NCBI RefSeq assembly: GCF_054482525.1
Contig: NZ_CM137006.1
Length of the DNA: 64,000 nt
Direction: 5' to 3' (one strand)
Shown here: positions 46,516 to 49,500 of the stretch, piece by piece
How the letters are laid out: each line of letters begins with the position of its first letter
Position numbering within the stretch: position 1 is the first letter of the stretch
Program-made: the position numbers

Positions 46516-49500
46516 TAGTGTCCTTCGTGGCTGTAGTAAAAGACCGGTAATCCCAGCTTAAGACGTAGCGCCAGTAAACGGGCAAAAAAGCCGAATACCA
46601 GGGTGGAGATAATCACCACATCATGGTTAGAAACATAGTGTTGCAGCGCGATGTACAGCACGGCGGAGGCAAATGAGACACCGGCATACAACTCTTTCTG
46701 GAATACCAGTGGGATGCGTTTACAGAACATATCGCGCAAAACGCCGCCAAATACGCCGGTCGTCACAGCTGCGACAACGGCAATGATCGGGCCGTGTCCC
46801 ATATCCAGCGCAACCTGTGCGCCAATGATAGAAAAGACCACCAGTCCGAGCGCATCGAGCACCAGAAACACTTTGCGCAGGTAAGGCATTACAGGAGCAA
46901 CGATAGTGGTGAGTACTGCGGCGGTAGCGACAATAATCACATATTCCGGGTGTTTGACCCAGCCGAGCGGATAGTGGCCCAGCAGAATATCGCGCACTGA
47001 CCCTCCGCCAATTGCCGTGGCGGTCGCAATAATAATTACGCCAAATGTATCCATGCGCCGTCGTCCGGCCGCCAGCGCCCCCGTCATGGCTTCGGCAGTA
47101 ATGCCAACCAAATACAAAATGTGTAACAGCATGGTTCTCTCCCTAAAAATCTGTCTGGCAGGGTAGCGATTTGTGCGTATTGTCACGATTGAGATTTTTT
47201 AAGGTGAGAGGAAATTGATAACTTGTAGTTATGTGAAATCGCTATTTTCTGTAGCGTAGATGCATTCTTCTGACTTCTTGTCTGAGAAAATGCATAAGAA
47301 AAAATAGGTTAAAATTGAGGGGTGGAAAAGAAAGGTGCAATGTTAAGCCATTGTGTTCACCGCACCTGGACTTTGGCTTACGCATCGGGTATCTCAATCA
47401 ACAAAAAGAGTTTTTAGTTTCTGCTATTTCTTCTCTGTAATTTTTACACTGTTTTCCAACTGCTTGATGCTGACCTGCGGGGTCGGCAACTTAATACAAC
47501 CATTTTGGTGGTTTCAACGAAATGGTCAGATGCAGCTTGATTGCTGGCTTCGCACGCTTGAGTCGCGCGGGCCAGTACCTTTTGAAAATTGCGCCAGTCC
47601 CGATAATCCAGTAACGGTGCCAATTCTCTCGCTGACCAAAATTCTTGCCCTTCAGTGCCATAATGCCGTATTTCTTCAAAAGGTTGATGATGTTCGTTCA
47701 TTGCCCACTCCATGTGATATCGATTGCAAGGAAAGTAAGTCTACAACTGTGTTTATATACAGTTGTGAGTATCTCACGTTCTCACTGCGCTGGGCAAAAA
47801 AACATCGCAAAATCTGGAGCAGGCACGCAAAACAGAATTGAATGTTGCGGGGAGGAAAAATGCCGCTCTGTTTGAGTGGGCGGCATTTGTGAAGGCTGAA
47901 AAAGAAGAATTGGCGTTACGAGTTATTCGATGTTCTGGATCTGCTCGCGCATCTGCTCAATCAACACTTTCAGCTCGATGGCGGAGTTTGTCACTTCGGC
48001 ATTGATAGACTTCGACGCAAGAGTGTTCGACTCGCGGTTGAACTCCTGCATCATAAAGTCCAGACGACGACCAACGGCTTCTTTTTTCTTCAGAATGTTG
48101 TAGGTCTCTTTGACATGCGCTTCGAGGCGGTCCAGTTCTTCGGCTACGTCAATTCGCTGCGCCAGCAGCACCAGTTCCTGCTCCAGACGGTTGTTTTCCA
48201 GTTGCACCTGAGCATCTTCCAGCTTCGCGACCAGACGCTCACGTTGCCATTGCAGGATTTCCGGCATATGGGCGCGGACTTTGACCACTTCGGCGGTGAC
48301 GCCTTCCAGACGCTGCTCGATCAATGCTTTCAGCGCCTGACCTTCGGTTTCGCGCGCGACGATAAAGTCGTCCAGCGTACCATCCAACGCCGCGAGAATT
48401 TCAGCGGCAATCGCGTCGAGATCCTGCTCCTGGGCTGCCATCACGCCCGGCCAGCGTAGAATATCAACCGGGTTGATTTCCCCTTCGTCACTCTGCATTT
48501 TTACCCAGTTCGCGGCAGTTACCAGCTGTTTAGCCAGTTTTTCGTTGAGGATCAGCTCACCTTGCGCGCTAACATCTGGCTCATAACGCAGGGTACATTC
48601 CACTTTACCGCGCGTCAGGCGAGAACGAATACGCTCGCGAACGACAGGTTCAAGGCTACGGAACTGCTCCGGCAGACGAAAGTAAGTTTCCAGATAACGC
48701 TGGTTTACCGAGCGCATTTCCCAGGTTGCGCTCCCCCATTCACCCTTGATTTCACGCCGGGCGTAGGCGGTCATACTGCGGATCATAGACGTTCCTGTTT
48801 ATAAAAGGAGAGGTGGAAGGATTATAGCCATCGATGCCTTGTCAGGATAGGAATAACCGCCGGAAGTCCGTATAATGCGCAGCCACATTTGTTTCAAGCC
48901 GGAGATTTCAATATGCGTCCAGCAGGCCGTAGCAATAATCAGGTGCGTCCCGTTACCCTGACTCGTAACTATACAAAACATGCAGAAGGCTCGGTGCTGG
49001 TCGAATTTGGCGATACCAAAGTGTTGTGTACCGCCTCTATTGAAGAAGGCGTGCCGCGCTTCCTGAAAGGTCAGGGCCAGGGCTGGATCACCGCAGAGTA
49101 CGGCATGCTGCCACGTTCTACCCACACCCGTAACGCGCGTGAAGCGGCGAAAGGTAAGCAGGGTGGACGCACCATGGAAATCCAGCGTCTGATCGCCCGT
49201 GCTCTTCGTGCGGCAGTAGATTTGAAAGCGCTGGGTGAGTTCACCATTACGCTGGACTGCGACGTGCTTCAGGCTGATGGTGGCACGCGTACCGCGTCGA
49301 TTACGGGTGCCTGCGTGGCGCTGGCAGATGCGCTACAGAAGCTGGTGGAAAATGGCAAGCTGAAAACCAACCCGATGAAAAGGATGGTAGCCGCAGTTTC
49401 TGTCGGAATTGTGAACGGCGAAGCGGTTTGCGATCTGGAATACGTTGAAGACTCAGCCGCAGAGACCGACATGAACGTAGTGATGACCGAAGACGGGCGC

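Follow-up and report, generated by a model that had tools for sequence, protein, structure and literature searches.

The closest described counterpart of the locus analysed here is the intact dinD gene of Escherichia coli (PcsA; b3645; NCBIfam family NF008573), which is LexA-regulated and is listed among the genes with a known SOS box (PMC6590174). Its product is described as removing RecA filaments or inhibiting them (Uranga et al., 2011, as cited in PMC4786428 and PMC4849656). Intact DinD, including that of K-12, is 274 aa long, with a Bro-N domain at residues 10-105. Its gene lies between yicG and yicC, in an interval that spans 1,334-1,337 bp in genomes with an intact dinD.

The window that we analysed is a 64,000-nucleotide (64-kb) stretch of contig NZ_CM137006.1 (RefSeq assembly GCF_054482525.1). 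The chromosome of E. coli PCN033, a porcine ExPEC strain (serogroup O11, phylogroup D; PMC4578781), contains the same sequence at 100% identity; the genome paper of this strain does not mention dinD (PMC4578781). The stretch 47133..47922, which is the exact gap between the annotated yicG and yicC genes, is likewise 100% identical and was placed at one position only in the PCN033 record, with no second location. The gene remnant within it resembles intact dinD in its position between yicG and yicC, in the LexA box upstream and in its codons 1-70 and 254-274, which are identical or nearly so to those of intact alleles. It differs from intact dinD in that codons 71-252 are missing, the frame is shifted and the match to NF008573 falls below the cut-off of that family. 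Here we describe this interval, which very probably holds a dinD pseudogene that arose through one inherited deletion of 547 bp and whose product is most likely non-functional.

Results

An internal deletion in dinD

Alignment of the interval with the corresponding regions of MS8324 and K-12 BW25113 revealed a single contiguous gap of 547 bp inside dinD (Table 1). The rest of the interval is colinear with both references, nothing else is missing, and the part shared with intact MS8324 is 99.2% identical. As in the intact comparators, the site lies between yicG and yicC and on the same strand as both, which identifies it as the orthologous dinD locus. Numbered from the annotated ATG at 47701, the missing sequence runs from codon 71 through the first base of codon 253, so that 182 of the 274 codons are absent. 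Because 547 equals 3 x 182 + 1 and is not a multiple of three, the reading frame shifts at the junction. The 70 codons that precede the junction are, at the nucleotide level, 100% identical to those of intact dinD in MS8324. The fragment that follows it keeps the original dinD frame and is hence out of frame with the 5' fragment. The gap is present relative to each of six intact alleles and is accompanied by a premature stop, and RefSeq already marks two pseudogene fragments at the dinD position in PCN033, which together identify the locus as a pseudogene formed by deletion and frameshift.

Table 1. Coordinates of the features at the yicG-dinD-yicC locus, in window positions.
Feature	Position	Strand	Description	Basis
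yicG, trimeric intracellular cation channel family protein	46515..47132	minus	Intact; downstream neighbour of dinD; listed ORF reaches a GTG that precedes the annotated ATG (47132)	RefSeq annotation of PCN033 and ORF
yicG-dinD spacer, 291 bp	47133..47423	minus	Conserved, colinear with K-12 and MS8324	
Terminator-like hairpin	~47326-47367	minus	10-bp stem, 15-nt loop, U-rich tail	RNA fold
3' dinD fragment	47424..47491	minus	Last 2 nt of codon 253, codons 254-274, TAG stop	Alignment and tblastn
Present ORF from annotated start	47444..47701	minus	70 native and 15 frameshifted codons (…KMVVL/SCRPRRSASSSWKTV); TAA stop 47444-47446	Translation
Deletion junction	47491..47492	plus	GGCAACT/TAATACAACC; 547 bp of intact alleles missing between the two bases	Alignment with MS8324 and K-12
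5' dinD fragment	47492..47701	minus	Codons 1-70, partial Bro-N	RefSeq 'BRO family protein, incomplete, missing C-terminus'
LexA (SOS) box of dinD promoter	47745..47764		AACTGTGTTTATATACAGTT; core CTGT-N8-ACAG at 47747-47762, CTGTGTTTATATACAG	Pattern search
yicC, YicC/YloC family endoribonuclease	47923..48786	minus	Intact; upstream neighbour	ORF and RefSeq annotation

When the whole 64-kb window was searched with intact DinD using tblastn, the two fragments were the only matches, which indicates that the window encodes no second full-length dinD and none in another frame. In the same search, residues 253-275 of intact DinD aligned at 47492..47424 with 95.7% identity. Profile searches returned partial matches for the remnant. 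Against NF008573, the DinD equivalog, it scored 107.9 bits over model positions 6-81 of 288, whereas the curated cut-off is 242 bits with an end-to-end match and two intact DinD alleles scored 504.7 and 488.1 bits over positions 6-279, which places the remnant outside the family. Against the Bro-N domain (PF02498), it scored 30.0 bits, above the gathering threshold of 25.6, over positions 1-59 of 96 only. The 3' stub (47424-47492; L001:1792-1860) is named 'DNA replication protein DnaD, missing N-terminus' by RefSeq/PGAP in PCN033 and in every other carrier of the deletion that was inspected. Judged by its alignment, the 'DnaD' label is a misnomer, and the fragment is the C-terminus of DinD.

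These results support a preliminary description of the window and revise several of its details. The minus-strand ORF of 89 aa that it placed at 47444..47713 exists exactly as described (MEWAMNEHHQPFEEIRHYG...), and it is the frame of the annotated ORF begun at an ATG at 47713, in frame and four codons upstream of the annotated start. Its interpretation as an 89-codon N-terminal remnant was correct in that the ORF derives from dinD, but its native part begins at 47701 and is limited to 70 codons, and the final 15 codons are a product of the frameshift. The interval had been judged too short for a full-length gene, and the lengths agree (790 bp versus 1,334-1,337 bp in intact genomes); K-12 DinD is itself not a short protein. 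A deletion had also been proposed to have removed most of dinD. The 547-bp gap accounts for that loss, but the deletion is internal rather than a 3' truncation, and positions 47424-47491 still hold the final 21 codons and the stop. Finally, the remark that the interval holds no other convincing ORF matches the content of the remainder, which comprises, besides the spacer on the yicG side, the 3' stub in its separate frame and the promoter region of dinD.

Two classes of intact dinD

Across a survey set of 5,426 complete E. coli genomes, intact dinD falls into two classes that are distinguished by a 217-nt block covering codons ~11-82, in the Bro-N region. The block is ~54% identical between the classes, and the yicG-yicC interval outside it is ~96% identical. 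In intact MS8324 the block corresponds to L002:2371-2587, and the part retained in the window corresponds to 47492-47672. The type found in PCN033 and MS8324 occurs in ~2,760 genomes and the K-12 type in ~1,896. At the protein level, K-12 DinD and the non-K-12 allele share 84% identity overall, with the differences concentrated in residues 12-85. From this pattern, the block looks like a cassette replacement through recombination with a distant homologue. The two-allele split explains why the DinD N-terminus given in the preliminary description differs from that of K-12. The sequence belongs to a real DinD allele, with 70 codons identical to MS8324, but K-12 agrees with it only over the first 11 residues, and it represents the other common allele.

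We also observed that two records labelled as Campylobacter phage, MG065691.1 (122935-123756) and MG065686.1 (50367-51188), which correspond to A11a and A18a, encode a full-length protein that is 84.3% identical to MS8324 DinD. Because this is the identity level of K-12 DinD, the match suggests that the A11a and A18a records contain E. coli DNA.

Genomes that carry the deletion

A 60-bp probe that spans the junction gave a one-piece match of 100% identity in 41 of the 5,426 complete genomes. A 42nd record that passed the coverage filter was left out because it holds an intact allele, the halves of which had been merged by the search tool. Sources of the carriers span several continents and comprise soil and water as well as human, dog and chicken hosts, an ivory gull and a mountain pygmy possum; O7:H15 'ST70', O166:H15 and O158:H23 strains are among the carriers. 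The same two pseudogene annotations were found in all six further carriers that were inspected besides PCN033.

For seven sampled carriers and four intact-dinD comparators, we compared ~12 kb of flanking sequence (12,055 ungapped columns). Carriers differed from one another at 0-139 sites, with 95-139 differences per 12 kb between carrier sub-groups, and from the comparators at 185-264 sites. By this measure, the carriers group together yet are not clonal (~1% divergence), which suggests that the deletion is old.

Loss of dinD elsewhere in E. coli and links to mobile elements

Other lesions affect dinD in the species. The gene is wholly absent from ~709 of the 5,426 complete genomes (~13%), in which only a spacer of ~250 bp separates yicG from yicC. 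This dinD-less spacer (L004:3972-4221; L017:1477-1727) shares ~85% identity with the window in the part next to yicG. In RM9088, an IS1 (IS1A) insertion splits dinD (L018:485-2083), and in EC-16-35 a copy of ISKox3 lies between dinD and yicC (L006:2702-3922), where it probably separates dinD from its upstream sequence. In these cases, as in the window, the same dispensable SOS gene has been inactivated or removed at the same locus. FDAARGOS_1058 carries a 222-bp deletion in dinD between 9-bp direct repeats AGCTTGCTG (L005:1791-2393), and the deleted allele is still annotated as a 200-aa dinD. That deletion is in frame and flanked by repeats, whereas the 547-bp deletion in the window is blunt and out of frame. 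Because ~709 genomes are without dinD and others carry IS insertions or the 222-bp deletion, we conclude that dinD is dispensable across the species and has been lost repeatedly. In the strain represented by the window, the activity of DinD against RecA filaments is expected to be lost because 182 of 274 codons are missing.

The full-length protein has matches among mobile and defence-related families. DinD of MS8324 (L002:1792-2616, minus strand) gives an end-to-end match to the PADLOC candidate defence family PDC-S13, with E = 1e-124, and it also matches a type I specificity-subunit model of 717 positions over the first 267 of them. Among the PHROG families, it matches PHROG 8036, which has no assigned function, and, weakly, the anti-repressor families. 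Homologues annotated as DinD, with 52-55% identity, are present in streptococcal satellite phages, further homologues are encoded on Zymomonas and Thiothrix plasmids, and a gene with a dinD domain has been described inside a type I R-M locus (PMC9881135). The Bro-N proteins (PF02498) include proteins similar to the phage anti-repressor Ant, and the fragment retained in the window resembles them over the first 59 of the 96 profile positions only. A literature search for 'PDC-S13' returned no papers, and a sequence search for solved structures of DinD relatives returned none at E ≤ 1. The family matches suggest a mobile, possibly defence-related ancestry of dinD.

This ancestry raises the alternative that the loss was not neutral and reflects turnover of a defence-type accessory gene that is triggered by the SOS response and derived from a mobile element. 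The clade would then have shed a costly function in defence or recombination control, or it would have kept the 85-aa stub for a new role. The argument for such turnover draws on the PDC-S13 match, the occurrence in type I R-M loci, the phage-satellite homologues, the absence of dinD from ~13% of genomes and the existence of Bro-N forms that are ~54% identical. We consider this explanation unlikely, and the mobile and defence matches leave the interpretation of the locus as a pseudogene unchanged.

The dinD promoter and the remaining ORF

Consistent with membership of the SOS regulon, a predicted LexA box lies just upstream of the dinD start codon. The box is intact, with one substitution in the spacer relative to the K-12 dinD upstream region, and none of the variable sites among the seven carriers falls within it. 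Alignment with intact loci indicates that the region upstream of dinD is intact as a whole. The only other CTGT-N8-ACAG match in the window is at 58194-58209 (CTGTTTGGTGCGACAG). Given its GC-rich spacer and a chance expectation of 0.65 matches, this site is probably not a LexA box.

On the other side of the gene, the yicG-dinD spacer contains a terminator-like hairpin (Table 1), which could be the dinD terminator. The predicted fold of this spacer segment was no better than that of shuffled sequences (z-score not significant), and a scan of 47100-47950 for consensus promoters and terminators found neither. No RNA family was detected when 46400-49000 was scanned against Rfam at a permissive E-value, which indicates that the interval hides no known RNA gene.

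With the SOS promoter untouched, DNA damage probably still induces a short transcript. As predicted from its sequence, this transcript could encode only an 85-aa product, in which 70 native residues are followed by a nonsense tail of 15 residues. Because 182 of the 274 codons are missing, the Bro-N domain is truncated and the tail is nonsense, the product is most likely inactive, which would leave the clade without DinD activity.

We considered whether the 85-aa stub might instead be retained as a functional, SOS-inducible small protein, a truncated Bro-N with a new or dominant-negative role. Its promoter region is intact, and although the flanks diverge by ~1%, all seven carriers have an open 85-codon ORF, free of new stops and indels, and an unaltered LexA box. 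However, an ORF of this length is expected to stay open over ~1% divergence by chance, under neutrality. The stub also covers no more than the first 59 of the 96 positions in the Bro-N profile, which makes a complete fold unlikely, and its last 15 residues are derived from the frameshift. Among the four substitutions found in the ORF across the seven carriers, three are non-synonymous (E3D, A24V and S81N), which fits relaxed constraint, although the sites are too few for a test. Furthermore, other lineages lose dinD completely. A functional role of the stub is therefore decidedly improbable, and we favor the interpretation that it is a non-functional remnant.

Origin of the deletion

Across the six intact alleles, we found no in-register microhomology, direct repeat or inverted repeat within 40 bp of both breakpoints. 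A slipped-strand or repeat-mediated deletion was ruled out, as no in-register repeat is present at the breakpoints. The blunt junction, which lacks repeats and microhomology, makes independent recurrence very unlikely. We infer that the allele arose through one old event of illegitimate recombination and was then inherited. The ancestor would have carried a dinD allele of the non-K-12 (MS8324) type, in which illegitimate recombination would have joined two points 547 bp apart, with blunt ends free of repeats. With codons 71-252, the Bro-N domain would have lost its final third and the C-terminal region almost its whole length, and the frame would have shifted. The lesion would then have been passed on by descent in a sub-lineage to which PCN033, of phylogroup D, belongs, and the carriers would have diversified to ~1% at the locus.

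Part of the present distribution may have a different history. Inside the 790-bp interval, PCN033 differs from intact MS8324 at 6 positions and from the carrier strain 1190 at 7. Because PCN033 is as near to MS8324 as to strain 1190 within the interval, the deletion allele may partly have spread laterally between lineages by homologous recombination. In the adjoining segment 47462-48461, which contains most of yicC, two carriers (L007 and L008) differ from PCN033 at 24-25 sites per kb, which equals the distance of the intact-dinD strains, whereas the other carriers differ at 3-9 sites. This divergence on the yicC side points to a recombination mosaic adjoining the deletion in those two genomes.

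The diversity of the carriers, with as many as 139 differences per 12 kb between sub-groups, together with the fact that they are not clearly set apart from intact MS8324 within the interval, could also be explained if the deletion had arisen several times independently at a hotspot. However, the 41 junctions agree at every one of the 60 bp compared, and neither a direct repeat nor microhomology that might promote recurrence is present at the breakpoints, in contrast to the 222-bp deletion with its flanking 9-bp direct repeat. Moreover, the carriers are closer to one another over the 12-kb flanks than to any of the four intact comparators. We therefore give the hotspot scenario hardly any weight relative to a single origin of the deletion. 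A further possibility is that the strain really has an intact dinD and that the gap reflects an error of sequencing or assembly in a single genome, which an older assembly such as that of PCN033 could not have excluded as a lone record. This possibility is effectively refuted by the identical junction in 41 complete genomes that were sequenced independently, in different laboratories and from different hosts and countries, by flanks that differ by up to ~1% and hence are no copies of one assembly, and by a junction that offers no repeat for an assembler to collapse.

Discussion

The deletion is a case of ordinary decay of a dispensable gene, and the status of the locus as a pseudogene is already known from the RefSeq annotation. 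Its practical consequence is that PCN033 and 40 other complete E. coli genomes would be without a functional DinD, a non-essential SOS protein. This consequence is relevant when PCN033 is used as a model ExPEC strain, or when dinD serves as an SOS reporter locus, as the gene is broken in this strain and its LexA-controlled promoter is intact. The junction sequence also provides a handy marker of the lineage. Beyond the deletion itself, the wider pattern at the locus is of mild interest with regard to DinD, the biology of which is still poorly understood; this pattern comprises genomes with and without the gene, a number of independent lesions and two strongly divergent forms of the N-terminal block.
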